Positions 6,638 through 24,527 of a stretch of 24,527 nt of DNA are shown one piece after another (position 1 is the stretch's first letter; each line of letters begins with the position of its first letter). The notes beneath the pieces are model-generated. The model made no database searches, had not been told where the DNA came from, and was given only the letters and a program-made list of their open reading frames with translations. Source of the stretch: a virus (Duplodnaviria > Heunggongvirae > Uroviricota > Caudoviricetes); IMG/VR virus record IMGVR_UViG_2537562172_000002, positions 1-24,527 of that record, one strand, 5' to 3'. The position numbers were made by a program, and so were the translations under genes.

Positions 6638-6674
6638 TTGCGAGATATGCAAGTGATATTTGCGAGGTATGCAA
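6638..6674. promoter_or_regulatory. Putative left operator: two 15-bp sites TTGCGAGATATGCAA and TTGCGAGGTATGCAA, 22 bp centre to centre
   Basis: Near-identical pseudo-palindromic sites (TTGC...GCAA) matching the site TTGCGTGATAAGCAA upstream of cro. Confidence 0.55.
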
Positions 6675-6687
6675 ATTTATAGGTAGT

Positions 6688-6708
6688 AAAAAGCCACCTT
6701 TCGGTGGC
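6688..6708 (-). terminator. Rho-independent terminator downstream of cI (minus strand)
   Basis: Hairpin gccacc-tttc-ggtggc with an adjacent A-run on the plus strand (U-run on the minus transcript). Confidence 0.55.
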
Positions 6709-6728
6709 CGATGGATGGGATATTGAGG

Positions 6729-7421: not shown

Positions 7422-7518
7422 GCGTTTATTACATTTCTTTATTGCGTGATAAGCAAATCAACTTGCGCAAAATAATTGCGTGAAATAACATGCATAACGC
7501 GCAATATTTGGAGGGCAT
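7422..7518. promoter_or_regulatory. Right operator / divergent promoter region between cI and cro
   Basis: Operator-like site TTGCGTGATAAGCAA (7442-7456), self-complementary TTGCGCAA (7463-7470), further TTGCG/CGCAA half-sites; candidate -35 TTGCGC and -10 TAACAT; RBS ggaggg before cro. Confidence 0.6.
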
Positions 7519-7779
7519 ATGCAATCACCATTACGAAATGTGCGTAAGGCGCATGGTTTCACTTTGCAGCATGTTGCTGCGGGTGTTCAAGTCAATCCAG
7601 CGACGTTGAGTCGTATTGAGAGGCTGGAGCAGATTCCATCTATCGAGCTTGCAGAACGTTTAGCCAATTTTTTTAAGGGTGAAGTCAGCGAAATGCAGAT
7701 TCTTTATCCGGCACGTTTTCAATCTAGCCAAAACCAGAATGGGTTTAAACCACAGGAACAGGAGGTGAACCGTGGGTAA
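7519..7779 (+). CDS. cro: Cro-like HTH regulator, 86 aa
   Basis: HTH GFTLQHVAAGVQVNPATLSRIERLEQIPS; divergent from cI with intervening operators. Confidence 0.8.
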   Translation: MQSPLRNVRKAHGFTLQHVAAGVQVNPATLSRIERLEQIPSIELAERLANFFKGEVSEMQILYPARFQSSQNQNGFKPQEQEVNRG

Positions 7780-8329
7780 GCATCACTGGAAAGTAGAAAA
7801 ACAGCCTGAGTGGTACGTGAAAGCTGTCAGAAAAACTATCGCAGCGTTGCCGGGGGGTTACGCTGAAGCAGCTGACTGGCTGGATGTAACAGAGAACGCA
7901 TTATTTAACCGCCTTCGTGCCGATGGCGATCAGATTTTCCCGCTGGGATGGGCAATGATTTTGCAACGTGCTGGTGGAACTCACTTCATTGCTGACGCTG
8001 TGGCGCAGTCTGCAAATGGCGTCTTTGTGTCTCTTCCTGACGTCGAGGATGTGGACAACGCCGATATTAACCAGCGTCTGCTGGAAGTCATTGAACAGAT
8101 CGGCAGTTATTCAAAACAGATTCGTTCAGCAATCGAAGACGGTGTAGTGGAACCGCATGAGAAGACAGCAATTAACGACGAGCTGTATCTCTCAATTTCG
8201 AAGCTGCAGGAGCATGCAGCACTTGTCTACAAAATTTTTTGCATTTCAGAAAGTAATGACGCCCGCGAGTGTGCAGCTCCGGGCGTCGTGGCGTCGATTG
8301 CTTCTGGTTGTGGAGAAACTAACGCATGA
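7772..8329 (+). CDS. Putative CII-like phage regulatory protein, 185 aa (family assignment tentative)
   Basis: GTG start preceded by caggagg RBS; position directly after cro; sequence recalls CP76/CII-type regulators, not verified. Confidence 0.55.
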
Positions 8330-8664
8330 ACAGTTTAACAACACACTACCGTCGCTCGCAACTGATTGCGCTTCCTGTACCGGGTGGAAAAGCGAAGGTG
8401 GAGTATTGCTATGCAGTAAATGTACCAGGTGACAGGGAAATTGTAACCCACAGCTTTGCAGAGTGGGCTGTGGGTGATTTCAACCGGCAGAAGGAGACAG
8501 TCCTTTGCGACAAGTTAACCGCTGGTTCAAAGATCACTACGGAGTGCCCGTCAGAGTCATTCGTTGGGAACCGGAAACACAATGGGTTATCTACCTCCGC
8601 GAAGGCTATGAGCATGAGTGCTTCAGCCCGCTCGAACAGTTTCGTCGTAAATTCAGGGAAATAG
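8326..8664 (+). CDS. Hypothetical protein, 112 aa; C-terminal third may be out of frame
   Basis: ATG overlaps the preceding stop (ATGA). The last ~50 codons overlap a better-looking ORF in another frame. Confidence 0.4.
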
Positions 8665-8684
8665 AGGTCGGTCATGAGCACTAA
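8505..8684 (+). CDS. Small ORF (59 aa, TTG start), possibly the displaced C-terminus of the upstream gene
   Basis: aaggaga RBS 7 nt upstream of TTG; translation [59 protein letters not shown] is protein-like with typical E. coli codons. Confidence 0.4.
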
Positions 8685-9090
8685 ATTAACCGGCTATGTA
8701 TGGGATGGTTGCGCTGCATCAGGCATGAAGTTATCCAGCGTGGCAATTATGGCCCGCCTGGCTGATTTCAGTAATGACGAAGGTGTGTGCTGGCCATCAA
8801 TTGAAACCATTGCCCGTCAGATTGGCGCGGGGATGAGTACCGTCAGAACGGCTATCGCACGGCTGGAAGCAGAAGGCTGGTTAACGCGTAAGGCGCGTCG
8901 CCAGGGTAACCGGATCCGCGATCTGGACAACTATAACAAGGCGCTGTTTGACGCCCTGACCCACGCGGGTGTGTGGGAAGACGACAGCCAGGTGAAAAGA
9001 ATGCTGGTGGAGTGGGGACCGGTTATCCCGGAAGGGAAGGTCGAGATCACTATCAGTAAGTACGAGAAAACGGCGGGTGCAGCCGCCTGA
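8674..9090 (+). CDS. HTH-domain protein resembling the N-terminal domain of phage replication-initiation proteins, 138 aa
   Basis: Winged-helix-like segment SIETIARQIGAGMSTVRTAIARLEAEGWL; position where lambdoid phages carry O/P. Confidence 0.65.
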   Translation: MSTKLTGYVWDGCAASGMKLSSVAIMARLADFSNDEGVCWPSIETIARQIGAGMSTVRTAIARLEAEGWLTRKARRQGNRIRDLDNYNKALFDALTHAGVWEDDSQVKRMLVEWGPVIPEGKVEITISKYEKTAGAAA

Positions 9091-9109
9091 TCAAGAGGAG
9101 AAACGAAGT

Positions 9110-9919
9110 ATGAATAATCTGATGGTCATTGATGGTATTGAAGTTCGTCGTGATGCTTATGGGCGTTACAGCCTGAACGATCTGCACAGGGCAGCCGGGG
9201 GAGAACAAAAAAACCGCCCGAAATACTGGCTCTCCAATAAGCAAACCTGTGAATTGATTGAACAACTTTTCACCGAGGGTGGAATTCCGCCTCTGGAACA
9301 AAATCAACCAGTTAGCGTCATTAATGGCGGAAATAACCAGGGGACGTATGTCTGCAAAGAACTGGTGTATGCCTATGCAATGTGGATCAGCCCGTCATTC
9401 CATCTGAAGGTGATCCGTACTTTCGATATGGTAACCAGCGCACCGGAAAAATTATCCGGGCAGGCTGCTGACAAGATGCAGGCTGGAGTGATTCTGCTGG
9501 ACTTTATGCGCAGGGAGTTAAACCTGTCTAACTCTTCAGTGCTTGGGGCCTGTCAGAAACTCCAGGAGGCTGTTGGCTTACCGAATCTGGCACCGCGCTA
9601 TGCCATTGATGCTCCTGCTGACGCGCCTGATGGCTCAAGTCGCCCGACACTGTCGCTGAGTGCACTGCTGAAACAGTATGGTATCCGCCTTACGGCTAAT
9701 CAGGCATATCACCAGATGGCGAAGCTGGGGATCGTCGAACAGCGCGAACGATACAGCCGTACAGCGATTAACAACATCAAAAAATTCTGGTCGCTGACGG
9801 CGAAAGGCTGCATGTTCGGCAAGAACATCACCAGTCCTGCAAATCCGCGCGAGACGCAGCCGCATTTCTTCGAATCCCGATTCCCTGAGCTGTTAAAGCT
9901 GCTCGATACCGTTCATTGA
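9110..9919 (+). CDS. KilA-N domain protein
   Basis: ATG with aagaggag RBS; N-terminus MNNLMVIDGIEVRRDAYGRYSLNDLHRAAG...KYWLSNKQTCELIEQ resembles the KilA-N fold consensus. Confidence 0.7.
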   Translation: MNNLMVIDGIEVRRDAYGRYSLNDLHRAAGGEQKNRPKYWLSNKQTCELIEQLFTEGGIPPLEQNQPVSVINGGNNQGTYVCKELVYAYAMWISPSFHLKVIRTFDMVTSAPEKLSGQAADKMQAGVILLDFMRRELNLSNSSVLGACQKLQEAVGLPNLAPRYAIDAPADAPDGSSRPTLSLSALLKQYGIRLTANQAYHQMAKLGIVEQRERYSRTAINNIKKFWSLTAKGCMFGKNITSPANPRETQPHFFESRFPELLKLLDTVH

Positions 9920-9920
9920 G

Positions 9921-10916
9921 GTGACCGTGAGAGCACTACTGACCCCTGAAATTGCCCCGCGTATGGGGATCGTATTGTTCAGGCCAGGTTCAGAGTTGAT
10001 GCCCCTGTTTATGCAGGGGCGTGTACTGCTGGAGCCTGAGCCGGAACGTTATTCATCTTTCGCCAGTGGTGCCGTTCCGGCGGCATCACAACCGCTGGCG
10101 GATGATCCTGCCGTTCGGGCCGTGTTCCGCAATGAGGCAGTGATCCGTCGTGCTGGTGGCGTGGAATGTCTTGAAAGCTGGTTACTTCGTGAAAAAGGCT
10201 GCCAGTGGCCTCATTCCAACTGGCACAGCGAGAACATGACCACAATGCGACACGCGCCTGGCGCAATCCGTCTGTGCTGGCACTGCGATAACCAACTGCG
10301 CGATCAGTTCACGGAACGGCTGGAATCAATGGCAACGGATAACTGTGCCCGCTGGGTGTTGTCTGTTGTGCGTCGGGATCTCGGTTTTGATGATAGTCAC
10401 GTTGTGACAATGCCGGAACTGTGCTGGTGGCTGGTTCGTAATGATCTGGCGGATGCCTTACCGGAAAGCGCAGCCCGTAAGGCACTGAGATTACCGAAGC
10501 CTGTTGTGCCGTCTGTCACCCGGGAAAGTGACCTTGTGCCTTCGGTTCCAGCCACCAGCATCATGCAGGATAAAGCGAAAAAGGTGCTGGCGCTGAAAGT
10601 GGAGCCGGAGTCGCCGGAGTCTTTTATGTTACGCCCCAAACGTCGCCGCTGGGTTAATGAAAAGTACACGCGCTGGGTTAAGACACAGCCGTGTGCATGT
10701 TGTGGAAAGCCTGCTGATGATCCCCACCACCTGATAGGCCACGGTCAGGGGGGAATGAGTACAAAAGCGCATGACCTCTTTGTGTTGCCTTTGTGCAGAA
10801 AGCATCACGACGAGCTGCATGCGGATACCGTGGCATTTGAAGAGAAGTATGGCTCCCAGCTGGAGCTGATATTTCGTTTTATCGACCGTGTGTTGGCAAT
10901 TGGTGTGCTAGCCTGA
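9921..10916 (+). CDS. Phage protein with C-terminal Cys/His-rich (HNH-like / DUF968-like) motif, 331 aa
   Basis: GTG start just after the previous stop; C-terminus CACCGKPADDPHHLIGHGQGG...LCRKHHDELH. Confidence 0.65.
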   Translation: MTVRALLTPEIAPRMGIVLFRPGSELMPLFMQGRVLLEPEPERYSSFASGAVPAASQPLADDPAVRAVFRNEAVIRRAGGVECLESWLLREKGCQWPHSNWHSENMTTMRHAPGAIRLCWHCDNQLRDQFTERLESMATDNCARWVLSVVRRDLGFDDSHVVTMPELCWWLVRNDLADALPESAARKALRLPKPVVPSVTRESDLVPSVPATSIMQDKAKKVLALKVEPESPESFMLRPKRRRWVNEKYTRWVKTQPCACCGKPADDPHHLIGHGQGGMSTKAHDLFVLPLCRKHHDELHADTVAFEEKYGSQLELIFRFIDRVLAIGVLA

Positions 10917-10933
10917 TTTGGTGGAGAAAGTTG

Positions 10934-11299
10934 ATGCGTGATATTCAGATGGTTCTGGAGCGTTGGGGGGCATGGGCGGCGAGTGATAGTTCAGGCGTTG
11001 ATTATTCACCTATAGCCGCTGGGTTTAAGGGACTTCTTCCCTATACAAGCAAGAAACGCTTGGCTTGTTCGGATAGTGATGCCTTAATTATTGAAGGTTG
11101 TCTTGCTCGTCTAAAGCAAAAAAGGCCGGACGAACATTCGCTTCTTGTTGCCCATTACCTATACGGTATCTCTAAAAGAAAGCTCGCCAAGGCTCGTAAA
11201 AAAGATGAGAAATTGATACGTATAGAAATACAGCTAGCCGAAGGATTTATTGATGGCTGCCTTTCCATGCTAGATCTAACATTAGATTTGGACGTTTAA
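10934..11299 (+). CDS. Q: Late-gene antitermination protein Q (QuuD-like)
   Basis: Begins MRDIQMVLERWGAWAA, as I recall for E. coli QuuD; ggag RBS 7 nt upstream; positioned before the late/lysis region. Confidence 0.85.
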   Translation: MRDIQMVLERWGAWAASDSSGVDYSPIAAGFKGLLPYTSKKRLACSDSDALIIEGCLARLKQKRPDEHSLLVAHYLYGISKRKLAKARKKDEKLIRIEIQLAEGFIDGCLSMLDLTLDLDV

Positions 11300-11300
11300 T

Positions 11301-11326
11301 AATACGCCCCTGCATGGGGCGTATTA
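11301..11326. terminator. Perfect 10-bp hairpin between the convergent Q and KAP genes, possibly a bidirectional terminator
   Basis: aatacgcccc-tgcat-ggggcgtatt followed by T-rich sequence, with A-rich sequence upstream. Confidence 0.6.
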
Positions 11327-11327
11327 T

Positions 11328-12659
11328 TTACTGGATGAATGACATTTGATTAATATATTTTATCAATAACTCTCTGGGTGTAGTACTCCAAAAATTTATG
11401 TGTTCATAATCAGTATAAACATTTGTGAATTTTTTAAGTTCTTCATCACTTTTAGGGGCAAATCGCTCATTAAGAGTAATACTGTCTTTAATTATTCCGA
11501 AGAATACAATCGATATTTCAGGGATTTGCGATCTTCTCTCATAAGAATAAGGTATTTCTTTTATGTTAAGCAGGTCTGCTAAATAAGATATAGATTCAGC
11601 GGTAATTTCTTGTTTTAGTTTTTCCTTGTTACCAAAGCAATGTATGAAGGCAGCTACGACAAAGATCATATTTATTAAAGGATCACTGCTTTTGTTCTCA
11701 TCGTCGTTTAACAGTTGGAAAATGTTAAGATTGCGTGAAAATGTTTGTGTTTCACGTAATGATAAGTTGGTTCGTTGAATTAAATCACGGATAAAGTAAC
11801 CTGATAATCTATTGATTTTATTCAATAAGCTTGTTTTTTCTACAAGGTAATCCCAATATATAACAGAGGCTTTACATACGTTGTGACCATTTATCAAACA
11901 TGTATCTGGAAGCGTGATGGTATATTTTATAAACTTGTCAAGATACTTTTGTGAGTTAATGCTATAACCATAAATATGATTTATAGATGCTTTTAATTGT
12001 TCTGTGTTTGTAACTAAAATAAAAAAGACATTATTGATGTCAAAAATGTGTTTTATTGTTTCAATGACATTTGTTGAAAAACTCGGCTTACATCGGTCTA
12101 ATTCATCAATTATAATTACGATTTTTTGATTTTTTGATATGCTTTCGATGCAGGATTTAAGTGAATTTATGTTTTTCTCTGAGTCCATATGGTCTTCAAG
12201 CAAATTTTCAATAGTCCCATCTATTGCTGCATTGCTTGCTTTCTTCATCGCATCTTGGAATTCTTCGGCAACTTCACTAGCCTCCTGTCGTAAAAACCAA
12301 CCTGCACCAGCTTTTAGTACCGTTTTTAAACCAAAGCGAATTGCAGGAAGAGATCTCTTAATGAAGTGTTGTTTTTCTTCCTCAGGCAAAATGCTGGCAA
12401 TTGCAGAGGTTATGAGAAGTAATGGAGATTCTGCATGATCCCCTTTAAAGGCATCAATATAAACAACTTTAGATTCAGTTTCTTGCTCAATAATGAGATT
12501 TTTCAGTTTGATACTAAATTCTGTTTTCCCTGTTCCCCATGCGCCGTCTATTACCAGTGGTGAAATGTCTGCCTCTGGTTTTAGCAACTTGATGATATTT
12601 TCAGCGATGTTTCTTCGTTGGAACTCGTCACGTTCAGTGAAAGATAGTGTATCTAACAT
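11328..12659 (-). CDS. KAP-family P-loop NTPase (PifA-like), 443 aa
   Basis: Walker A GAWGTGKT (aa 39-46) and Walker B VIIIDELD (aa 181-188); visibly AT-rich compared with flanking phage genes; opposite orientation to Q and the late genes. Confidence 0.85.
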   Translation of the reverse strand: MLDTLSFTERDEFQRRNIAENIIKLLKPEADISPLVIDGAWGTGKTEFSIKLKNLIIEQETESKVVYIDAFKGDHAESPLLLITSAIASILPEEEKQHFIKRSLPAIRFGLKTVLKAGAGWFLRQEASEVAEEFQDAMKKASNAAIDGTIENLLEDHMDSEKNINSLKSCIESISKNQKIVIIIDELDRCKPSFSTNVIETIKHIFDINNVFFILVTNTEQLKASINHIYGYSINSQKYLDKFIKYTITLPDTCLINGHNVCKASVIYWDYLVEKTSLLNKINRLSGYFIRDLIQRTNLSLRETQTFSRNLNIFQLLNDDENKSSDPLINMIFVVAAFIHCFGNKEKLKQEITAESISYLADLLNIKEIPYSYERRSQIPEISIVFFGIIKDSITLNERFAPKSDEELKKFTNVYTDYEHINFWSTTPRELLIKYINQMSFIQ

Positions 12660-12781
12660 AATATAAACCTATTAACTCCTACAGTAAAAAACGAATAATA
12701 CGACTTTGGGATTAAAAATCATTAACGCGGTCCGCAAAAATTCTTGTAATCTGTTAAGAGTGTTACTTCGCCACACAGCTT

Positions 12782-12808
12782 AAACCCGCTGTCGAGCGGG
12801 TTTTTTTG
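12782..12808 (+). terminator. Plus-strand intrinsic terminator (candidate tR'-like element)
   Basis: Hairpin aaacccgct-gtcg-agcgggttt followed by a run of seven T; no plus-strand ORF immediately upstream. Confidence 0.55.
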
Positions 12809-12930
12809 TACCTGTAAACCTGGTGCAGTACGGTAAACACGCTGGTGGTAGTGAATACTGATTTTTTATCTTGCTGGCTTTTTAGACAAGAGTTATTGGT
12901 ATGTCATGTTAACCATGAAGGTAAAAAGAC

Positions 12931-13125
12931 ATGCTAAAACAGCAAGATATGACAGAAACGGCGAAAGTGGTTTTTAATGAATTAAGCATCGAACCGGCAA
13001 CAGTCGGGGAGATTGCACAAAACACATACCTTTCACGCGAACGCTGTCAGTTAATACTGACCCAGTTGGTTATGGCGGGGCTGGCAGATTACCAGTTCGG
13101 CTGTTACAGACGCCTTCAGCAATGA
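12931..13125 (+). CDS. Small hypothetical protein, 64 aa, possible winged-helix
   Basis: ATG with weak gaaggt RBS; helical-looking translation; function unknown. Confidence 0.4.
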   Translation: MLKQQDMTETAKVVFNELSIEPATVGEIAQNTYLSRERCQLILTQLVMAGLADYQFGCYRRLQQ

Positions 13126-13274
13126 AGGGCTTTTAATTTGTGAAAATGGGCGGCTGGTGGGTGTTGGTAGCACCTGCCAGCCATTCGCTCATGCTTACTG
13201 GTCACAAGCGAACCACGGCCCACTGCTTTAGCGCAAAAGCAGAGTGAGCCTACCAGAGTTACGCTTACTGATCC

Positions 13275-14327
13275 ATGAAAAATACTGTAAAAATAAACAG
13301 TGTTGATTTAATCAACGCTGATTGCCTGCATTTTATTCAGTCCCTGCCTGATGATTCCATTGACCTGATTGTTACCGATCCGCCGTACTTCAAGGTGAAA
13401 CCCAACGGCTGGGACAATCAGTGGAAAGGGGACGAAGATTACCTGAAGTGGCTGGACCACTGTCTGGCTCAGTTCTGGCGGGTGCTGAAACCTGCCGGAA
13501 GCCTTTACCTGTTCTGTGGACATCGCCTCGCATCTGATATCGAGATCATGATGCGTGAACGTTTCAACGTTCTTAACCATATTATCTGGGCGAAGCCGTC
13601 CGGACGATGGAACGGGTGTAATAAAGAAAGTCTGCGCGCATATTTTCCCGCAACAGAACGCGTTCTGTTTGCTGAACATTACCAGGGGCCATATCGCGGC
13701 AAAAGTGACGGCTATGCGGCAAAAGAAAGTCAACTCAAACAGCACATAATGGCACCGCTGATTTCGTATTTCAGGGATGCTCGTGCCGAACTGGGTATAA
13801 CGGCAAAACAGATTGCCGAAGCCACTGGTAAGAAAAACATGGTTTCCCACTGGTTTGGTGCCAGTCAGTGGCAGTTGCCGAATGAGGCTGACTACCGGAA
13901 GTTGCAGGCACTGTTTTCCCGTATAGCGGCAGAGAAGTTTCAGGAACAACAACTGGAACAACCACACCACCAGCTGGTGGCATCTTATGATTCACTGAAT
14001 CGCAAATATTCTGAATTGCTGGATGAGTTTAAAACTCTCCGGCGCTATTTCTCCGTATCAGTTTCCGTGCCTTATACCGACGTCTGGACGCATAAACCCG
14101 TTCAGTTCTACCCGGGTAAACATCCGTGTGAGAAGCCTGCGGATATGCTCCGGCAAATAATCAATGCCAGTAGTCGACCAGGCGATCTGGTTGCTGATTT
14201 TTTTATGGGATCCGGTTCCACAATAAAAGCAGCAATGGCGCTGGGGCGTCGGGCCTTAGGTGTTGAGCTTGAGTCAGAGCGGTTTAACCAGACGGTGAAA
14301 GAGATAAACGAGCTGGTGGGGAAATAA
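13275..14327 (+). CDS. DNA methyltransferase, beta-class N6-adenine/N4-cytosine type, 350 aa
   Basis: Motif IV DPPY (IVTDPPYF) near the N-terminus and motif I FFMGSGST near the C-terminus; no adjacent restriction endonuclease gene. Confidence 0.9.
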
Positions 14328-14333
14328 TCTGGT

Positions 14334-14356
14334 GGCCACGTCAGGTGGCCTTTTTA
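14334..14356 (+). terminator. Hairpin plus T-run between the methylase and the holin
   Basis: ggccac-gtcag-gtggcc followed by ttttta. Confidence 0.5.
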
Positions 14357-14394
14357 TTTCCATTACACAGCACCCGCATCTGCGAGGTGGGGTT

Positions 14395-14610
14395 ATGAAA
14401 TCAATGGATAAGTTAACAACAGGTGTCGCCTATGGCACCTCTGCAGGCAGTGCTGGCTACTGGTTTTTACAGTTGCTCGATAAAGTCACGCCATCACAGT
14501 GGGCGGCAATAGGTGTGCTGGGTAGTCTGGTATTTGGCCTGCTGACGTACCTGACAAACCTTTATTTCAAGATTAAAGAAGATAAGCGTAAGGCTGCGAG
14601 AGGTGAATAA
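14395..14610 (+). CDS. S: Class II holin of the phage-21 S21 pinholin type, with dual-start motif MKSM
   Basis: [71 protein letters not shown] closely resembles S21 as I recall it; two transmembrane segments; RBS gaggtgggg. Confidence 0.85.
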
Positions 14611-15107
14611 TGTCGCCATCATTACGCAAGGCTGTTGCTGCTGCTATTGGTGGTGGGGCTGTTGCCATAGCGTCTGTGCTCATCACTGGTCCGAGTGGTA
14701 ACGATGGTCTGGAAGGTGTCAGTTACATACCATACAAAGATATTGTTGGCGTATGGACTGTATGTTACGGACACACTGGAAAAGACATCATGCTCGGTAA
14801 AACGTATACCGAAGCAGAATGCAAAGCTCTCCTGAATAAAGACCTTGCCACGGTCGCCAGACAAATTAACCCGTACATCAAAGTCGATATACCGGAAACA
14901 ACGCGCGGCGCTCTTTACTCGTTCGTTTACAACGTTGGTGCTGGAAATTTCAGAACATCGACGCTTCTTCGCAAAATAAACCAGGGTGATATTAAAGGCG
15001 CATGTGATCAGCTACGGCGCTGGACATACGCTGGCGGTAATCAATGGAAAGGACTGATGACTCGCCGTGAGATTGAGCGTGAAGTCTGTTTGTGGGGGAA
15101 ACAATGA
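14610..15107 (+). CDS. R: SAR endolysin (T4-lysozyme-like muramidase with N-terminal signal-arrest-release segment)
   Basis: Gly/Ala-rich N-terminal segment [20 protein letters not shown] followed by lysozyme catalytic region (E...D...CYGHTG); start overlaps holin stop (TAATG). Confidence 0.9.
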
Positions 15108-15562
15108 GCAGAGTAACCGCGATTATCTCCGCTCTGGTTATCTGCATCATCGTCTGCCTGTCATTGGCTGTTAATCATTACCGTGATAACGCAATCGCCT
15201 ACAAAGAGCAGCGCGATAACAAGGCCAGTGAACTGGAGAAGGCGAACGCCACCATCGCTGACATGCAGAAGCGTCAACGTGATGTAGCAGAACTCGACGC
15301 CAGATACACAAAGGAGCTTGCTGATGCTAACGCGACTATCGAAAGTCTACGTGCTGATGTTTCTGTTGGGCGTAAGCGCCTGCAAGTCGCCGCCACCTGT
15401 GCAAAGTCAACGACCGGAGCCAGCGGCATGGGCAATGGAGAAAGCCCAGGACTTACAGCAGATGCTGAACTCAATTATTACCGTCTCCGAAGTGGAATCG
15501 ACAAGATAACCGCGCAGGTTAACTACTTGCAGGAGTACATCAGGACGCAGTGCTTAAAATAA
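15104..15562 (+). CDS. Rz: Rz i-spanin
   Basis: N-terminal transmembrane anchor [18 protein letters not shown] then coiled-coil periplasmic domain; ATG overlaps endolysin stop (ATGA). Confidence 0.85.
15324..15509 (+). CDS. Rz1: Rz1 o-spanin lipoprotein, embedded in the +1 frame of Rz
   Basis: aaggag RBS 7 nt upstream of ATG; signal peptide with lipobox (FLLGVSAC) followed by Pro-rich sequence [13 protein letters not shown]. Confidence 0.75.
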
Positions 15563-15602
15563 TTTTAATTTCACTGAAATTTAACAAGTGACTTTCAGGA
15601 AA

Positions 15603-15631
15603 ATGCCTCGCAGATGCGGGGCATTTTTGTA
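15603..15631 (+). terminator. Rho-independent terminator after the lysis cassette
   Basis: Hairpin atgcctcgca-ga-tgcggggcat followed by ttttt. Confidence 0.6.
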
Positions 15632-15920
15632 CAGGTATTTCACCGCGCACCGCAGCGCACTCAACCACGTCGAACCAAACCCTTTGGAATGAGCCTTTGA
15701 GTAGTCAGTTAGTGCTGGTGAGCCTTGACGGGCTGATCTCCTATGCAGCAAAGGTTCATCTCAAAGTAAGGCGAACGCTATGACAAACCAAGATTCTATA
15801 GACCTATCTGATCTTCGTGGAATGGTCAGTTTTCCAGACAAAAGGTAATCACCATAGTCGTATGGCTATGAATCTTGTTGCTGCAGATAAGCATTTTGTG
15901 ATTGAAGTGGTCAAATCTCT

Positions 15921-15978
15921 CAAATGCAGTAAAATGCAGTGCGCTATAATTCAGTAACGGAGGGAGTAAGGAGAAGTC
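15921..15978 (+). promoter_or_regulatory. Candidate promoter and RBS for the 15979 gene
   Basis: Perfect -10 TATAAT at 15945-15950, preceded by the tandem motif ATGCAGT(aaa)ATGCAGT; RBS ggaggg/aaggag before the ATG; -35 is weak. Confidence 0.45.
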
Positions 15979-16599
15979 ATGAAAGATCAAGATGTTAGGT
16001 TCGCGGTGCATCATAAGCTTTTGAAAGAATCGCATTTAGATCCTGACTGCCTTGTGGTCGATGAATTTTCCATATCCCTTGGCGCCAGTAGAGCAGACAT
16101 TGCTGTAATAAATGGTGTTATACACGGGTACGAGCTCAAAAGTGAATATGACTCTTTGGAGCGTTTGCCTCTTCAAATCAAGCATTATTCTTCTGTAATG
16201 GACAAGGTTACTCTTGTCGTAGCTGAGAAACATCTTGAGGGAGCATTAAAGTTAATCCCAGGTTGGTGGGGCGTTAAAACGGTTTCTGTTGGGCCAAAAG
16301 GCGCCATTCTTATAAAGCACATGCGTGGAGAAAAGCTTAATCGAAACCATAACTCATTGATGCTCGCTCAATTGCTTTGGAAAGATGAATGTATCGACGT
16401 ACTTGAACGATGGGGCTATTCCAAAGGAATCAAAAGCAAGCCCCGATTTGAGTTATGGAATATTATTGCGGAAAATATTCCAATAGCGAATCTCAGGCTT
16501 GAAGTCAGAACAGCCTTAAAGAAACGCGTAGGCTGGAAAGTTAAGGCTTGGCAGGCTGAGTCTGCGCCAACCAATAAAGCTGTCTCACGACTAACGTAA
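15979..16599 (+). CDS. PD-(D/E)xK nuclease-fold protein, 206 aa (recalls the sce7726-type family; not verified)
   Basis: Candidate catalytic residues E29, D40 and E52-x-K54 (VVDEF ... RADIAVINGVIHGYELK); own promoter-like signals; 3' end overlaps the convergent partner gene. Confidence 0.75.
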   Translation: MKDQDVRFAVHHKLLKESHLDPDCLVVDEFSISLGASRADIAVINGVIHGYELKSEYDSLERLPLQIKHYSSVMDKVTLVVAEKHLEGALKLIPGWWGVKTVSVGPKGAILIKHMRGEKLNRNHNSLMLAQLLWKDECIDVLERWGYSKGIKSKPRFELWNIIAENIPIANLRLEVRTALKKRVGWKVKAWQAESAPTNKAVSRLT

Positions 16600-17608
16600 T
16601 ATGGTGCGTATGTGCAACTTTACGCCATTCTTTAGAGCCGCCAGATTTGTTAGCGCCTAATGATCTTTGGTAAATGTAATCATCCCCCCAACTAAATTTG
16701 GAGCCAAAGACGTGATACTCTGGCGAACTAACAAGGGTAGTACATAAGTTTTTAGTTTGGCCCCATCCATTTCCTTTAACTGCGGTACCTTTTACAAAGA
16801 TCCATGAGGTATCGTTCGAATATCTCACTGAGACATACTGAGACATGAAGCGTGGGTCTACGCTCGTAATGGTAGAGCTAGCGGTGGGATAATCACTAAA
16901 ACTTGGCGTTCTTCCATTGCTAAAATTCTGTACTACATACATCCAAAGATCGTATTCATGGCGCGGAATATGATGAACTTGATGTTGCGGTATCCCTGCC
17001 TGTGATGCAGGGTATGCGGTTGAAGATAAAATCAAGTTTCTCCACGGAGCTTGGCCTGATAATGTGTTGACCATGCTTAATGCTTGTTGTTTTAAACTAT
17101 CAGTTGCGTTTTGAATATCTCCAAAATCAATGATTACATCAATTAAACTAGGATGAATATTTAAGTGGTTAACCAGACTTGTGAATTGGTGCCATGTCTG
17201 GGGGGTGATAGATATAGCGAGCCCATTGATTAAGTTGCGTTGAACAGCATGTATATAGTTTGTTGAATATGCGGGAGAGACAACAGGGATAATTTCCTTA
17301 CCATTTACTCTAGCATCTTGGATACACATATCTAGAGGATGATGGCGGCTCGAACCATGTTTATCTAAATATTTAACATCCAGCAAAACAGGACGATTGG
17401 CTTTCCAGGATGCCGCAAGGTTAATACCGAAGTCAGATAAGTAAGAACTCAAACTCTTCTTGTAGCATTCGTTTTCATAATCCCAGTCTATGTCTGGAAT
17501 GGTAATGATCGGAGTAAAACCAGAGAGCGTAGTTTGATCTAAAAGCATCAGAGATTCATATTCAGCAGGCTTCCATTTCAGCTGTGGGTAATATTGATGT
17601 TGACTCAT
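16541..17608 (-). CDS. Uncharacterised 355-aa protein, partner of the nuclease-like gene (recalls the sce7725 / beta-protein family; not verified)
   Basis: aaggag RBS 5 nt upstream of the ATG; -10-like TATACT and a palindrome upstream; no motif I can assign by eye. Confidence 0.75.
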   Translation of the reverse strand: MSQHQYYPQLKWKPAEYESLMLLDQTTLSGFTPIITIPDIDWDYENECYKKSLSSYLSDFGINLAASWKANRPVLLDVKYLDKHGSSRHHPLDMCIQDARVNGKEIIPVVSPAYSTNYIHAVQRNLINGLAISITPQTWHQFTSLVNHLNIHPSLIDVIIDFGDIQNATDSLKQQALSMVNTLSGQAPWRNLILSSTAYPASQAGIPQHQVHHIPRHEYDLWMYVVQNFSNGRTPSFSDYPTASSTITSVDPRFMSQYVSVRYSNDTSWIFVKGTAVKGNGWGQTKNLCTTLVSSPEYHVFGSKFSWGDDYIYQRSLGANKSGGSKEWRKVAHTHHITLVVRQLYWLAQTQPAKP

Positions 17609-17651
17609 TAAAACTCCTTAAAATCTTTACTTATCCTAAGTATAGTGTTAT

Positions 17652-17664
17652 GGCGTAACGCCAA
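17652..17664. promoter_or_regulatory. Palindrome TGGCGTaACGCCA in the promoter region of the 355-aa gene
   Basis: 6-bp inverted arms around a central A, lying between candidate -35 and -10 elements of the minus-strand gene. Confidence 0.45.
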
Positions 17665-17799
17665 TTGTTTTTATACACTTGAAAACATTGGGAAAAGTTG
17701 AGCTATATCTAAATTTACAAAATTGGATGTTATAGAAATCGAGGTTTCAACTAGGCATGGAACTGCAAAATTTTTAATGCCTGCACGCGAAAGTCGTTG

Positions 17800-18020
17800 G
17801 CGGGTCCTTTCCGGCGATCCGACAGGTTACGGGGCGGCGACCTCGCGGGTTTTCGCTATTTATGAAAATTTTCCGGTTTAAGGCGTTTCCGTTCTTCTTC
17901 GTCGTAACTTAATGTTTTTATTTAAAATACCCCCTGAAAAGAAAGGAAACGACAGGTGCTGAAAACGAGCTTTTGGGCCTTTGTCGTTTCCTTTCTCTGT
18001 TTTTGGCCGTGGAATGAACA
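17800..18020 (+). other. Lambda-type cos site (cosQ/cosN/cosB); 12-nt cohesive-end sequence GGGCGGCGACCT at 17832-17843
   Basis: ...GATCCGACAGGTTACG immediately followed by GGGCGGCGACCTCGCGGGTTTTCGCTATTTATGAAAATTTTCCGG..., matching the joined right and left ends of phage lambda as I recall them. Confidence 0.85.
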
Positions 18021-18566
18021 ATGGAAGTCAACAAAAAGCAGCTGGCTGACATTTTCGGTGCGAGTATCCGTACCATTCAGAACTGGCAGGAACAGGGAAT
18101 GCCCGTTCTGCGAGGCGGTGGCAAGGGTAATGAGGTGCTTTATGACTCTGCCGCCGTCATAAAATGGTATGCCGAAAGGGATGCTGAAATTGAGAACGAA
18201 AAGCTGCGCCGGGAGGTTGAAGAACTGCGGCAGGCCAGCGAGGCAGATCTCCAGCCAGGGACTATTGAGTACGAACGCCATCGACTTACGCGTGCGCAGG
18301 CCGACGCACAGGAACTGAAGAATGCCAGAGACTCCGCTGAAGTGGTGGAAACCGCATTCTGTACTTTCGTGTTGTCGCGGATCGCAGGTGAAATTGCCAG
18401 TATTCTCGACGGGATCCCCCTGTCGGTGCAGCGGCGTTTTCCGGAACTGGAAAACCGACATGTTGATTTCCTGAAACGGGATATCATCAAAGCCATGAAC
18501 AAAGCAGCCGCGCTGGATGAACTGATACCGGGGTTGCTGAGTGAATATATCGAACAGTCAGGTTAA
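18021..18566 (+). CDS. nu1: Terminase small subunit Nu1, 181 aa
   Basis: MEVNKKQLADIFGASIRTIQNWQEQGMPVLRGGGKGNEVLYDSAAVIKWYAERDAEIENEKLRR... is near-identical to lambda Nu1 over its whole length. Confidence 0.95.
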   Translation: MEVNKKQLADIFGASIRTIQNWQEQGMPVLRGGGKGNEVLYDSAAVIKWYAERDAEIENEKLRREVEELRQASEADLQPGTIEYERHRLTRAQADAQELKNARDSAEVVETAFCTFVLSRIAGEIASILDGIPLSVQRRFPELENRHVDFLKRDIIKAMNKAAALDELIPGLLSEYIEQSG

Positions 18567-18807
18567 CAGGCTGCGGCATTTTGTCCGCGCCGGGCTTCGC
18601 TCACTGTTCAGGCCGGAGCCACAGACCGCCGTTGAATGGGCGGATGCCAATTACTATCTCCCGAAAGAATCCGCATACCAGGAAGGGCGCTGGGAAACAC
18701 TGCCCTTTCAGCGGGCCATCATGAATGCGATGGGCAGCGACTACATCCGCGAGGTGAATGTGGTGAAGTCTGCCCGTGTCGGTTATCCGACAGGAAACAC
18801 TGAATGA
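18541..18807 (+). pseudogene. A: Terminase large subunit A, truncated after codon 82
   Basis: First 82 residues (MNISNSQVNRLRHFVRAG...KSARVGY) match lambda gpA; the frame then reads PTGNTE and stops. Junction near 18786 at a TATCC microhomology. Confidence 0.85.
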
Positions 18808-19810
18808 ATGCACCCGTGCGGAGCAGTCGGCCAGCGTGGTGCTCTGGGAAATCGACCTGACAGAGGTCGGTGGAGAACGTTATTTTTTCTGTAATGAGCA
18901 GAACGAAAAAGGTGAGCCGGTCACCTGGCAGGGGCGACAGTATCAGCCGTATCCCATTCAGGGGAGTGGTTTTGAACTGAATGGCAAAGGCACCAGTACG
19001 CGCCCCACGCTGACGGTTTCTAACCTGTACGGTATCGGTGCCGGTATTGAGAACACCCCTGACGGCATGCAGAGTCAGGTGCTGCTGGCAGCAGACAGGA
19101 TTGCGATGATTAATCCTGCGAATGGCAACACAAAGCCGATGTTTGTTGGTCAGGGCGATCAGATATTCATGAATGAAGTGTTCCTGAAACGCCTGACGGC
19201 CCCCACCATTACCAGCGGCGGTAATCCTCCGGCATTTTCCCTGACATCAGACGGGAGACTGACGGCGAAAAATGCGGATATCAGTGGCAGTGTGAATGCG
19301 AACTCAGGAACGCTCAACAATGTCACGATTAACCAGAACTGTACGATTAAGGGCATGCTGGAGGCGACCCAGGTCAGAGGAGATTTCGTTAAAGCTGTAT
19401 CAAAAGCCTTCCCGAAAAAAGTCGGTACGTGGGGTAACACGGAAACACCAAACGGTACGGTTACAGTCACCATCAGCGATGATCATAACTTTGACCGCCA
19501 GATTATTATTCCGCCCATTATTTTTAACGGTATAGCGTATGACGATCCGGGGAGCGGAAATAACCCAGGAGGCACGCGATACACGGGTTATGGTTTTGAA
19601 GTTCGCAAAAACGGCGTATTAATCGCATCCAGAGAAACTAAAGGGGCCATTCCCGGTAGTTACAGTGCAGTTATTGATATGCCGAGTGGCAGGGGAAGCG
19701 TCACTCTGGAGTTTAAGATTTTCCAGAAAGGCAATCAGGGGGCAGGCAATATCACCGACTGTACGGTGATTGTGACCAAAAAAGCCGCTTCCGGCATCAG
19801 TATTCGTTGA
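18776..19810 (+). pseudogene. In-frame fusion remnant: tail protein L N-terminus (~86 aa) joined to the C-terminal receptor-binding region of a J-like host-specificity protein
   Basis: ...[35 protein letters not shown]...TLTVSNLYG matches lambda L; the remainder ([22 protein letters not shown]...DDHNFDRQI...[10 protein letters not shown]...[10 protein letters not shown]) resembles the lambda J C-terminus; no RBS at the GTG. Confidence 0.65.
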
Positions 19811-19831
19811 AATATTTATAACCCCAATAAA

Positions 19832-19857
19832 GGGCGTCAGGAATGACGCCTTTTTTA
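19832..19857 (+). terminator. Rho-independent terminator upstream of lom
   Basis: Hairpin ggcgtca-ggaa-tgacgcc followed by tttttt. Confidence 0.6.
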
Positions 19858-19880
19858 TTGCAGAAAAGCGAGAGGTAATT

Positions 19881-20480
19881 ATGCGTAAAGTTTGTGCAGC
19901 AATTTTGTCCGCAGCCATTTGTCTGGCCGTATCCGGTGCGCCTGCATGGGCGTCTGAACATCAGTCCACGCTGAGCGCGGGGTATCTTCATGCCTCGACG
20001 AACGTCCCCGGCAGTGATGATCTGAACGGGATTAACGTGAAATACCGTTATGAGTTTACGGACACACTGGGGCTGGTGACGTCATTCAGCTATGCAGGAG
20101 ACAAGAATCGCCAGCTGACCCGTTACAGCGATACCCGCTGGCATGAAGATTCCGTTCGTAACCGCTGGTTCAGCGTAATGGCGGGGCCGTCTGTGCGCGT
20201 GAATGAATGGTTCAGCGCGTATGCGATGGCGGGTGTAGCTTACAGCCGTGTGTCGACTTTCTCCGGGGATTATATCCGCGTAACTGACAATAAGGGGAAA
20301 ACGCACGATGTGCTGACCGGAAGTGATGACGGTCGCCACAGCAACACGTCTCTGGCGTGGGGGGCTGGCGTGCAGTTTAACCCGACCGAGTCCGTGGCCA
20401 TTGATGTCGCTTATGAAGGTTCCGGCAGTGGCGACTGGCGCACTGACGGTTTCATCGTGGGTGTCGGTTATAAATTCTGA
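19881..20480 (+). CDS. lom: Lom-family outer-membrane beta-barrel protein (Ail/Lom/PagC family)
   Basis: Signal peptide MRKVCAAILSAAICLAVSGAPAWA; C-terminus IDVAYEGSGSGDWRTDGFIVGVGYKF matches lambda Lom as recalled; gagagg RBS. Confidence 0.9.
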   Translation: MRKVCAAILSAAICLAVSGAPAWASEHQSTLSAGYLHASTNVPGSDDLNGINVKYRYEFTDTLGLVTSFSYAGDKNRQLTRYSDTRWHEDSVRNRWFSVMAGPSVRVNEWFSAYAMAGVAYSRVSTFSGDYIRVTDNKGKTHDVLTGSDDGRHSNTSLAWGAGVQFNPTESVAIDVAYEGSGSGDWRTDGFIVGVGYKF

Positions 20481-20506
20481 TTAGCCAGGTAACACAGTGT
20501 TATGAC

Positions 20507-20534
20507 AGCCCGCCGGTTCAGGCGGGCTTTTTTG
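20507..20534 (+). terminator. Rho-independent terminator after lom
   Basis: Hairpin agcccgcc-ggttca-ggcgggct followed by ttttt. Confidence 0.7.
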
Positions 20535-20544
20535 TGGGGTGAAT

Positions 20545-23500
20545 ATGGCAGTAAAGATTTCAGGTGTACTGAAAGACGGCACAGGAAAACCGGTACAGAA
20601 CTGCACAATCCAGCTGAAAGCAAAACGTAACAGCACCACGGTGGTGGTGAACACGCTGGCCTCAGAAAATCCGGATGAAGCCGGGCGTTACAGCATGGAC
20701 GTTGAGTACGGGCAGTACAGCGTTATTCTGTTGGTGGAGGGATTCCCGCCGTCACATGCCGGGACCATCACCGTGTATGAAGATTCCCGACCCGGTACGC
20801 TGAATGATTTTCTCGGTGCCATGACGGAGGATGATGCCCGTCCTGAGGCACTGCGCCGTTTTGAACTGATGGTGGAAGAGGTGGCGCGTAACGCGTCCGC
20901 GGTGGCACAGAACACGGCAGCCGCGAAGAAGTCAGCCAGCGATGCCAGCACATCAGCCCGTGAGGCGGCAACCCATGCGACTGATGCTGCAGGCTCAGCA
21001 CGCGCAGCCAGCACGTCAGCCGGACAGGCCGCGTCGTCGGCTCAGTCAGCGTCTTCCAGCGCAGGAACGGCATCAACAAAGGCCACTGAAGCGGAAAAAA
21101 GTGCTGCCGCTGCAGAGTCCTCAAAAAGCGCGGCGGCCACCAGTGCCGGTGCCGCGAAAACGTCAGAAACGAATGCTGCAGCGTCACAACAATCAGCAGC
21201 CACTTCTGCATCCACCGCGACTACGAAAGCGTCAGAAGCTGCCACCTCAGCCCGGGATGCGGCGGCTTCAAAAGAGGCGGCAAAATCATCAGAAACGAAC
21301 GCATCCTCGAGCGCCAGTAGCGCAGCTTCCTCGGCAGCAGCGGCAGGAAATTCCGCGAAGGCGGCAAAAACGTCCGAGACGAACGCCAGGTCTTCTGAAA
21401 CGGCAGCGGGACAGAGCGCCTCGGCTGCGGCAGGCTCAAAAACAGCGGCTGCGTCGTCTGCCAGTGCAGCGTCAACAAGTGCCGGGCAGGCCTCAGCCAG
21501 TGCCACCGCCGCCGGAAAATCGGCAGAAAGCGCCGCATCGTCTGCTTCAACAGCCACAACGAAGGCTGGCGAAGCCACTGAACAGGCCAGCGCAGCAGCG
21601 AGGTCTGCTTCCGCAGCGAAGACATCCGAAACGAACGCGAAAGCGTCGGAAACCAGCGCAGAATCCTCAAAAACGGCTGCCGCATCGTCAGCCAGTTCGG
21701 CGTCGTCATCGGCATCATCTGCGTCTGCTTCAAAAGATGAGGCGACCAGACAGGCGTCAGCAGCGAAGGGTAGCGCCACGACGGCATCCACGAAGGCGAC
21801 AGAGGCAGCTGGCAGTGCGACGGCAGCAGCACAGAGCAAAAGTACGGCGGAATCCGCGGCAACGCGCGCCGAGACAGCGGCAAAACGGGCAGAGGATATT
21901 GCATCCGCCGTGGCGCTTGAGGATGCAAGTACGACGAAAAAGGGGATAGTACAGCTCAGCAGTGCGACCAACAGTACGTCTGAAACGCTGGCGGCAACGC
22001 CAAAGGCAGTAAAATCAGCCTATGACAATGCAGAGAAACGTCTGCAGAAAGACCAGAACGGCGCTGATATACCCGATAAGGGACGCTTCCTGAACAACAT
22101 TAACGCGGTCAGTAAAACAGACTTTGCTGATAAGCGTGGTATGCGTTATGTGCGGGTTAACGCTCCTGCAGGTGCAACATCTGGAAAATATTACCCTGTT
22201 GTTGTTATGCGTTCTGCTGGCTCAGTAAGCGAACTGGCATCAAGGGTCATTATCACCACGGCAACGCGAACCGCAGGCGATCCGATGAATAACTGCGAGT
22301 TTAACGGATTTGTTATGCCTGGTGGCTGGACTGACAGGGGGCGTTATGCTTATGGAATGTTCTGGCAATATCAAAACAATGAACGAGCCATCCACTCAAT
22401 AATGATGAGTAATAAGGGCGATGATTTGCGCTCTGTGTTCTATGTTGATGGCGCTGCTTTCCCTGTTTTTGCGTTTATCGAAGATGGCCTGTCAATATCC
22501 GCACCTGGTGCTGATCTCGTTGTTAATGATACGACCTATAAGTTTGGGGCAACAAATCCGGCGACTGAATGTATCGCGGCGGACGTTATCCTTGATTTTA
22601 AGAGTGGGCGTGGTTTTTATGAGTCTCATTCGTTAATCGTTAACGATAACTTGTCGTGCAAAAAACTTTTTGCCACAGACGAAATTGTAGCGCGTGGTGG
22701 TAATCAGATTCGAATGATAGGTGGGGAGTATGGGGCATTATGGCGTAATGATGGCGCTAAAACTTACCTGCTGCTTACCAATCAAGGTGATGTTTATGGT
22801 GGCTGGAATACATTAAGACCGTTTGCTATTGATAACGCAACCGGCGAACTGGTTATTGGAACCAAACTGTCCGCAAGTCTGAACGGTAATGCATTAACAG
22901 CAACAAAGCTGCAAACGCCAAGACGGGTTTCTGGTGTTGAGTTTGATGGTTCCAAAGATATTACTTTAACCGCCGCGCATGTGGCTGCTTTTGCCAGAAG
23001 GGCAACGGATACATATGCCGATGCGGATGGTGGCGTTCCCTGGAATGCCGAATCAGGCGCTTATAATGTCACCCGCTCTGGCGACAGCTATATTCTGGTT
23101 AACTTCTATACCGGAGTCGGAAGTTGCCGGACCTTGCAGATGAAGGCGCATTACAGAAATGGTGGTCTGTTCTACCGTTCTTCAAGAGACGGTTATGGTT
23201 TTGAGGAAGACTGGGCAGAAGTTTATACCTCGAAAAATCTTCCACCAGAAAGCTACCCAGTCGGCGCACCAATCCCGTGGCCATCAGATACCGTTCCGTC
23301 TGGTTATGCCCTGATGCAGGGGCAGACTTTTGACAAATCTGCTTACCCGAAACTTGCAGCCGCTTATCCGTCAGGCGTGATCCCTGATATGCGTGGCTGG
23401 ACGATTAAGGGCAAGCCCGCCAGTGGTCGTGCCGTATTGTCTCAGGAACAGGATGGCATTAAATCGCATACCCACAGCGCCAGCGCATCCAGTACGGATT

Positions 23501-23943
23501 TGGGGACGAAAACCACATCGTCGTTTGATTACGGCACTAAATCCACGAATAACACTGGTGCGCATACCCATAGTTTAAGTGGCAGCACGAATGCAGCTGG
23601 TAATCACAGCCATAGAGATGGCCGTCGATTTAACCCCAGTGTTTTTAAAGATACTTATCAATATGGTTATACAAGCTCAGGTCAAAATACCTGGGGTGTA
23701 CAAGGCTCAGTAGGTATGTCTACGGGGTGGTTAGCTAATACCAGTACAGATGGTAATCATAGCCACTCACTGTCCGGCACAGCAGCATCTGCAGGTGCAC
23801 ACGCGCATACTGTCGGTATTGGTGCTCATACGCACTCCGTTGCGATTGGTTCACATGGACACACCATCACCGTTAACGCTGCTGGTAACGCGGAAAACAC
23901 CGTCAAAAACATCGCATTTAACTATATTGTGAGGCTTGCATAA
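20545..23943 (+). CDS. stf: Side tail fibre protein (lambda Stf family), about 1132 aa
   Basis: N-terminus [26 protein letters not shown] and C-terminus ...[31 protein letters not shown] match lambda Stf as recalled; His-x-His repeats near the C-terminus. Confidence 0.9.
20900..21950 (+). repeat. Low-complexity Ala/Ser/Thr-rich repeat region inside stf, with recurring KTSETNA-like units
   Basis: GCN-rich codon repeats; generate long spurious ORFs in other frames and on the opposite strand. Confidence 0.7.
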
Positions 23944-24527
23944 TGGCATTCAGAATGAGTGAACAACCACGGACCATAAAAATTTATAATCTGCTGGCCG
24001 GAACTAATGAATTTATTGGTGAAGGTGACGCATATATTCCGCCTCATACAGGTCTGCCAGCAAACAGTACCGATATTGCACCGCCAGATATTCCGGCTGG
24101 CTTTGTGGCTGTTTTCAACAGTGATGAGGCATCGTGGCATCTCGTTGAAGATCATCGGGGAAAAACCGTCTATGACGTGGCTTCCGGCGACGCGTTATTT
24201 ATTTCTGAACTTGGCTCGTTACCGGAAAATGTCACCTGGTTATCGCCGGAAGGGGAATATCAGAAGTGGAACGGCACAGCCTGGGTGAAGGATACGGAAG
24301 CAGAAAAACTGTTCCGGATCCGGGAGGCGGAAGAAACAAAAAACAACCTGATGCAGGTAGCCAGTGAGCATATTGCGCCACTTCAGGATGCTGCAGATCT
24401 GGAAATCGCAACGGAGGAAGAAAACTCGTTGCTGGAAGCCTGGAAAAAGTATCGGGTGTTGCTGAACCGTGTTAATACAACAACTGCACCTGATATTGAG
24501 TGGCCTACGAACCCTGTCAGGGAGTAA
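23943..24527 (+). CDS. tfa: Tail fibre assembly protein, 194 aa
   Basis: ATG overlaps stf stop (TAATG); position and size match lambda Tfa; the ORF ends exactly at the window end. Confidence 0.9.

Follow-up and report, generated by a model that had tools for sequence, protein, structure and literature searches.

Evidence for two deletion scars in a lambda-like prophage at thrW, and the recurrence of TA at the breakpoints of lambda-like remnants

Layout of the locus and retained genes

The window, by which we mean the whole 24,527-nt stretch of the viral record IMGVR_UViG_2537562172_000002, opens with proA, thrW and an integrase gene, and its features are collected in Table 1. The late region runs in the order Q, lysis genes, cos, nu1, A′, L′, ′J, lom, stf and tfa, at 79–99% identity to lambda. 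In blastn comparisons with lambda (NC_001416), window 17832–18786 corresponds to lambda 1–956 at 98.7% (cos, nu1 and A codons 1–82), and window 18781–19035 to lambda 13434–13688 at 98.8% (L codons 3–86). Window 19061–19366 matches lambda J 18169–18474 at 79%, downstream of which the J C-terminus loses its lambda match; lom, stf and tfa in the window have lambda matches too. Lambda shares the gene order of the window and is 98.7–98.8% identical to it at cos, nu1 and the 5′ ends of A and L, but lambda is complete, and the J C-terminus, stf and the early region of the window diverge from it.

The element retains an integrase, regulators, Q, a lysis cassette, cos, nu1, lom, stf and tfa. Relative to both lambda and the intact E. 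coli prophage described below, it lacks A past codon 82, W, B, C, nu3, D, E, FI, FII, Z, U, V, G, T, H, M, most of L, K and I. Codons 1–906 of J are absent as well, and from 19031 the last 259 J codons follow in frame. The locus thus combines a tRNA-adjacent site and an integrase with a lambda-like late gene order and the loss of essential particle genes, as a defective lambda-like prophage does. Translation agrees with the original prediction that A resembles lambda for 82 codons before running out of frame to a stop (PTGNTE, then a stop codon), and that an L-like part of about 86 codons continues in frame into a J C-terminus.

Table 1. Features of the window and the blocks it shares with the prophage of E. 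coli VTB97432v (VTB)
Feature	Window position	Strand	Remarks
proA	1-1254		At window start; thrW next to it
Shared block, left	1-8912		VTB 884-9789; 99.8%
att repeat, 64-nt	1399-1462		Second copy at far end of VTB97432v prophage
Integrase	1459-2622	minus	Follows thrW; layout as in annotated relatives
Third deletion junction	8904-8912		Early region; 2,377 bp gone relative to VTB97432v
Shared block, up to junction 1	8904-18786		VTB 12158-22040; 1 mismatch in 9,883 nt
cos region	17832-18020	plus	cosN GGGCGGCGACCT at 17832-17843, then cosB; kept; identical to VTB97432v
nu1 (small terminase subunit)	18021-18566	plus	181 aa, intact; Pfam Phage_Nu1; identical to VTB gene
A′ remnant	18541-18807	plus	A codons 1-82, 6 out-of-frame codons (PTGNTE), TGA
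L′::′J chimeric ORF	18776-19810	plus	Open, 344 codons; GTG start inside A′
Shared block, L fragment	18781-19035		VTB 34509-34763
Junction 1	18784-18786		TAT common to A and L; 12,474 bp gone relative to VTB97432v
L′ fragment	18787-19030	plus	L codons 4-85; 0 differences from VTB L
Shared block, right	19031-24527		VTB 39299-44795; 76 mismatches
Junction 2	19031-19035		GGTAT common to L and J; 4,540 bp gone
J′ C-terminal part	19036-19810	plus	VTB J residues 908-1165; identical to VTB J; Pfam Phage_Tail_Tip, Ig_GpJ_C
lom	19881-20480	plus	Kept, open
stf	20539-23943	plus	Kept, open
tfa	23943-24527	plus	Kept, open

Comparison with an intact prophage at the same site

A whole-window search led to E. 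coli VTB97432v (NZ_CP178694.1), in which 100% of the window is covered at 99.6% identity, across approximately 50 kb. The prophage of this strain lies at the same proA–thrW site and appears to be complete; its late genes are all annotated as whole, namely nu1, A, W, B, C, D, E, FI, FII, Z, U, V, G, T, H, M, L, K, I, J, lom, stf and tfa. Site and genes are the same and identity is 99.8–100% outside one patch: all mismatches in the right-hand block are confined to 20031–21280 (lom 3′ and stf 5′). No differences from VTB97432v were found in the 990 nt to the left of junction 1, in the 244-nt L fragment or in the retained part of J. The VTB97432v prophage has the full A-to-J morphogenesis block and a 2.4-kb early segment, whereas the window is without both. 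The three deletions measured in this way total 19.4 kb, with the parental state taken from a relative in another strain and the window from a draft assembly.

Nucleotide alignment to lambda and VTB97432v places the late junctions, which had been expected near 18786 and 19033, at 18784–18786 and 19031–19035. At junction 1 the parental sequences, aligned side by side, read GGTTATTCC in A and GGATATCCG in L. They divide as GTCGGTTAT^TCC in A and CAGGATAT^CCGACAGG in L (break marked by ^), and the window product is GTCGGTTATCCGACAGG. The parental cores are GGTTAT^TCC in A and GGATAT^CCG in L; the A site on this side of the junction is GTCGGTTATTCC, and codon 82 of the VTB97432v A gene is the TAT at VTB 22038–22040. 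The TATCC microhomology originally proposed for this junction has to be replaced, as the parents instead share TAT, within GG(T/A)TAT with one mismatch. At junction 2, L reads TACGGTAT^GG and J reads GCGGGTAT^CGGTGCC, with TACGGTATCGGTGCC in the window and GGTAT in common. The early junction has the parents GGTAACCG and GGATAACCG, divided as GGGTAACCG^C and GGATAACCG^G with TAACCG in common. It joins an HTH_36 gene to the 3′ part of rusA, and the product has both HTH_36 and RusA Pfam matches. As in short-homology deletions, one copy of the repeat is kept at each of the three junctions, and filler bases and mobile elements are absent.

Because A, L and J are whole in VTB97432v and are cut inside coding sequence in the window, the direction of change is deletion, and three deletions accompanied by almost no substitutions argue that the events were recent. 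We are highly confident, if short of certain, that the region consists of two deletion scars in a lambda-like prophage at thrW beside proA, derived from an ancestor close to the VTB97432v prophage. That recent ancestor, all but identical to the VTB97432v prophage, would have lost three segments: 12,474 bp between codon 82 of A and codon 3 of L, 4,540 bp between codon 86 of L and codon 907 of J, and the 2,377-bp early segment. Each loss would have involved a clean break and rejoining at a TA step, within TAT, GGTAT or TAACCG.

Other parts of the original prediction are borne out by the same alignment. The A–L and L–J intervals are indeed missing, since VTB97432v carries all of the absent A-to-J genes, and cos, nu1, the lysis genes, lom, stf and tfa are intact as stated, being collinear without gaps with the intact genes of VTB97432v and having open reading frames. 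The reading of the region as deletion scars was likewise upheld, by the identical flanks in an apparently complete prophage at the same site and by the arrangement itself, for which none of 50,697 phage records covered at least 80% of 17700–20000. The scars themselves are ordinary prophage decay, and the element is a freshly disabled lambda-like prophage of a well-known kind. Its disabling was rapid, in that three deletions removed 19.4 kb with hardly any point changes.

A 100-nt junction 2 probe had no complete match in any of 5,426 complete E. coli genomes. Exact patterns of the two junctions, with junction 1 in its two SNP types, gave no match in GTDB, with one genome per species, or in JGI metagenomes. 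The 344-residue fusion protein occurs exactly in one public contig only (GCA_000225225.2, AFEA01000004.1), from which the window evidently comes.

Because the large terminase subunit, portal, capsid and tail genes are gone, we infer from gene content that the element is unable to form particles. With the large terminase lost beyond residue 82, together with the head and tail-shaft genes, it would be expected to lyse without packaging, and the early-region deletion may have impaired replication as well. The 88-codon A stub retains the part of gpA to which binding of gpNu1 is attributed in lambda. Translation of the chimeric frame gives L residues followed by J residues in a single frame, with Pfam matches to Phage_tail_L, Phage_Tail_Tip and Ig_GpJ_C. 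A promoter and terminator scan of 17600–20000 found no ribosome-binding site or promoter for this frame beyond chance. The L′::′J chimera, which has no evident translation signals, is probably inert. Fusion of the two parts in frame is a one-in-three chance event.

TA at the crossovers and reuse of breakpoints

Junctions were read in remnants of the form nu1–A′–tail gene in lambda-like E. coli prophages, including DLP12 and Qin of K-12, and all 24 read junctions came from searches starting at the cos–A end of lambda-like prophages. TA lies in the crossover at 19 of the 24, the exceptions being TC, TT, TT, TG and TGG, and at 4 junctions TA is the sole shared sequence. TA is the least common dinucleotide of the late region (3.1%). 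Among 400,000 simulated junctions, TA fell in the shared sequence in 1.7–12%, depending on shared length. Twelve of the first 16 junctions had TA, against 0.63 expected (P = 4e-15), and under a conservative 12% null the probability of 19 in 24 is 7e-14. A separate, evenly spaced draw was made from truncated best matches to cos–nu1–A; 7 of its 10 alignment ends fell within a few bases of a TA, which was the same TA as the crossover in the sequence-checked junctions of the draw. An eighth end was near a TA too, but its read junction crossed at TT.

The sequence around the TA is also biased. G stands two bases before TA at 15 of 18 sites, compared with 36% of all TAs (P = 5e-5), and C two bases after it at 11 of 18 (P = 0.011). 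TA(N)CCG, on either strand, is present at 15 of 27 sites versus 16% (P = 3e-6). Position counts are mirror-symmetric around the TA, in the pattern C-S-G-N-TA-N-C-S-G. In all products of TA junctions, the left parent continues to the base before TA, followed by TA and then by the right parent.

Individual sites appear in more than one combination. The A site GGTTA(T) accounts for at least four of the joins, to three partners: it is linked to L both in the window and in Qin, to J in isolate 38M23CPO015 (GGTTA^GCCGCCAG), which is the closest deleted relative at thrW, and to a tail-fibre segment in DLP12 of strain E15. The J site GGATAG is the partner of the A site GGTTA and also of a nu1 site (GAGTA^GCCGCCAG, isolate AHB21). 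A 12-nt stretch of J, GGGTATCGGTGCCGGTAT, was used three times, with the L site of the window as one partner, a nu1 site as another (CTGATA^TCGGTGCC, in an ETEC lineage) and a further A site as the third (CCGTTAT^TGAGAAC, strain 52F4). The nu1 site CTGATACC is joined to two different J positions and coincides with the alignment end in further genomes. GNTANC sites number 7 in cos–A and 21 in L–J, few enough that, given the preference, reuse of the same pair is unsurprising.

The K-12 remnants provide further examples: the A′–tfaD′ junction of DLP12 reads ACCCTTAT^TCC, and the nohA–stfQ junction of Qin reads GAATATA^ACCGCG. DLP12 (nohD, A′ pseudogene, tfaD′) keeps a lambda-type cos and nu1 and an A stub cut at lambda 1018, which is joined straight to a tail-fibre gene, at TAT like junction 1 of the window. 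It differs from the window in carrying one larger A-to-tfa deletion, with loss of J, lom and stf, in its other integration site, and in being much older and more decayed.

Within this sample the reuse of TA-centred breakpoints is statistically solid; it lies outside what the original prediction claimed. The joins were probably made by homology-independent (illegitimate) recombination with a marked preference for TA steps in a roughly symmetric CSG-N-TA-N-CSG context, a break-and-join process with a 2-bp core. Such a preference would explain the recurrence of the A site and of the A–L junction in unrelated remnants. As a tentative proposal that goes further, which we put forward as possible although we rate it as rather doubtful, loss of the morphogenesis block would not be random slippage but would be driven by a sequence-selective activity that breaks and joins DNA at the TA core, agreeing with none of the enzyme specificities compared below. 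A few sites, located in nu1/A, in L and J and in lom, stf and tfa, would then be reused across unrelated strains, and identical scars such as the A–L junction of the window and of Qin would arise independently. If TA-site reuse is real, identical scars across strains are no proof of shared ancestry, one can predict in part how prophages decay towards the remnants that E. coli retains (nu1, lysis genes, lom, stf, tfa), and there is a specific DNA-breaking or DNA-joining activity to look for.

Deletion by ordinary replication slippage, at short repeats taken at random and without preferred sites, would leave one copy of a short direct repeat; this is the classical signature of slippage and is what the junctions display. 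Slippage fits the five crossovers at TC, TT, TT, TG and TGG, and is a possible explanation for this non-TA minority. As an account of the whole set we consider it unlikely. A dinucleotide that makes up 3.1% of the region is found in 19 of 24 crossovers and is the only shared sequence in 4, whereas annealing would favour GC-rich matches; moreover, at least four joins with three partners were made at GGTTAT, and three in the 12-nt J stretch.

The recurrence of junction 1 in Qin also bears on how the window acquired it. A junction 1 probe is present complete in six complete E. coli genomes, and in the 2 examined it lies in Qin, between rspB and ydfJ. These Qin variants, from ETEC and other E. coli (P13-6, 1332KP and four more), have the identical junction of A codon 82 to L codon 3, but at a different locus from that of the window and on another SNP background on both sides of the junction. 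In 1332KP, Qin carries nohA and A′, followed by L, K and I in full and by a J truncated at the 3′ end only; it is a one-deletion intermediate state. Junction 2 is absent from these Qin variants, and P13-6 has an additional L-to-J deletion at another place (a TC junction). Between the Qin copies and the window there are 15 differences in the 990-nt left flank of junction 1 and 2 more in the L fragment, among them positions 7 nt before and 4 nt after the junction; at each of the 17 the window has the VTB97432v base. As the same junction is found in two haplotypes that are distinct up to the crossover, independent origin is the simplest reading, and junction 1 in the window and in Qin looks like the product of independent events, a recurrence that suggests use of hot spots and not of arbitrary breakpoints.

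Under the alternative of a single origin, the window would have imported the scar by homologous recombination from a resident Qin-type remnant. The same nucleotides are joined in Qin of the six complete genomes, and lambda-like prophages that share a host are well documented to recombine with one another (PMC2669165, PMC3945230). An imported junction would, however, bring the nearest SNPs of its donor, and with the VTB97432v base at all 17 positions of the window we regard import as very unlikely.

Assembly artefacts, in the form of collapsed or mis-joined contigs, would be in keeping with the sole public record of the fusion ORF being a draft WGS contig, but they seem to us exceedingly improbable. 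Mis-assembly is expected at long repeats and not at 3–5 nt matches within unique genes; the fusion ORF sits on a 277 kb contig and is present in two samples; and finished genomes have similar scars, one with the identical junction 1.

That the layout is native to a functional element, such as a cos-bearing satellite relying on a helper phage, is scarcely credible. In its favour, the element has an intact cos and nu1 and still carries integrase, regulators and lysis genes, but three deletions and one recombination patch are the only differences from a complete phage at otherwise near-zero divergence, A, L and J are cut within coding sequence, the layout occurs in no phage record, and the element, at about 30 kb as estimated from the att repeat positions, is outside the lambda packaging range. 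The terminase, portal, capsid and tail set of a complete functional phage is missing from it, and PICI-like cos satellites are an old, compact lineage with helper-exploiting genes, whereas this element is a singleton in public data with three fresh deletions.

Candidate activities at TA sites

Our reading of the literature found no described TA hot spot in prophage deletions, and we compared the TA-site proposal with activities that break or join DNA at preferred sites. Gyrase-mediated illegitimate recombination resembles the events described here: it is homology-independent, and it joins DNA at favoured sites that are roughly symmetric. GGTAT....ATACC forms part of the Topo-Seq consensus for gyrase (PMC6379681, supplement), and many of our breakpoints read GGTAT or ATACC. 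However, the determinants reported for gyrase and topoisomerase IV (-4G, -2A and -1T, with a 4-bp stagger; PMC10117906) put the cut off the TA, and exchange of a 4-bp overhang does not predict the four junctions that share TA only. GNAT or GGTAT is present in about half of the sites, in shifting registers. Among the listed gyrase sites mapped in W3110 are 580520 and 580942 but not 580561 or 580819, the nu1b and A sites, which weighs little against gyrase. Gyrase seems a doubtful candidate, since none of the registers accommodates all sites and in four junctions the exchange would have to fall precisely at TA; topoisomerase IV has the same register misfit.

E. coli topoisomerase I cuts T^A and requires C at -4 (PMC9352719). 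It was rejected because neither strand has this C at sites A, L, J1 and nu1a. IS30 makes a 2-bp target duplication and has hot spots, and its deletions retain the IS (PMC9333248); it was ruled out since no IS copy is present at the junctions. Secondary sites of integron integrases have the form GWTMW. Many of our sites match this motif, but the integron crossover would fall one base to the left of junctions 1 and L002, and this candidate was rejected too. Secondary sites of RusA, RuvC, Xer and lambda Int do not appear to fit.

Site-specific recombinases of the invertase type were also considered. No crossover-like inverted repeats were found near the Pin-type recombinase gene of the closest relative. 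Invertase half-sites, TTATCNAAAACC with the crossover lying 12 bp inward, do not appear to match the junctions, and the flanks of the TA sites do not seem to resemble those of invertase or resolvase sites. An exchange of the serine-recombinase type over a 2-bp core, for which an identical central dinucleotide at both partners and symmetric flanks would be expected, may or may not apply: TA is shared in 19 of 24 junctions and the flanks are symmetric.

Segment exchange between prophages

Haplotypes at window positions 18780 and 18790 were compared with those of the Qin prophages carrying junction 1, the A-to-L deletion scar (L003 and L004), and of the thrW prophage of isolate 38M23CPO015 (L002). 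Qin and 38M23CPO015 have a common nu1-A′ haplotype, agreeing in T at −7 and in nine further SNPs; late-region segments thus pass between prophages at separate loci. Despite such movement, junction 1 in the window was not itself an import. Right of junction 2, the L-to-J scar, all mismatches to VTB97432v (76/76), a strain with an apparently complete copy of this prophage at the same site, are confined to 1.25 kb at 20031-21280, spanning the 3′ part of lom and the 5′ part of stf. Because the flanking sequence is identical in the two, this patch looks like a recombination tract acquired from another prophage.

Early-region deletion and cargo genes

The third deletion cost an HTH gene its 3′ part and rusA its 5′ part, took out perC-like yfdN together with genes for an adenine methyltransferase and a LexA-family protein, and left an HTH_36::RusA fusion ORF. 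Three cargo loci, possibly comprising defence or moron genes, are interspersed with the late genes of the window.

Cargo loci and early-region deletion in the window
Feature	Position	Strand	Context
Third clean deletion, 2,377 bp vs VTB97432v	8904-8912		TAACCG repeat
KAP-family NTPase gene	11328-12659	(-)	after Q
N6/N4 DNA methyltransferase gene	13275-14327	(+)	before holin
Gene pair, Phage_P4_cII-like/'sce7726' and 'Beta protein'	15979-17608		between lysis genes and cos

Decay in related prophages

Classical K-12 remnants have the same junction type as the window, a crossover at a TA step: ACCCTTAT|TCC in W3110 DLP12 (L014 4883-4885), from A′ to tfaD′, and GAATATA|ACCGCG at the nohA/stfQ boundary of MG1655 Qin (L015), from the nohA end and A start to stfQ. 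E. coli FCI54 carries a thrW prophage of the same family as that of the window, in which decay took a distinct path: GGTTA marks a join of A to C (L017 22065-22074) and CATTAAC one of Z to stf (~25401), so that D, E, FI and FII are retained while the portal and all tail genes are gone. In E. coli TA8571 (NZ_AP024205.1, L008 3742-6084), A up to lambda 2179 is fused in frame to J from 18024 at TAA. The annotation presents this A::J fusion as an intact protein of 780 aa, a 'terminase gpA endonuclease subunit', and so is a trap.
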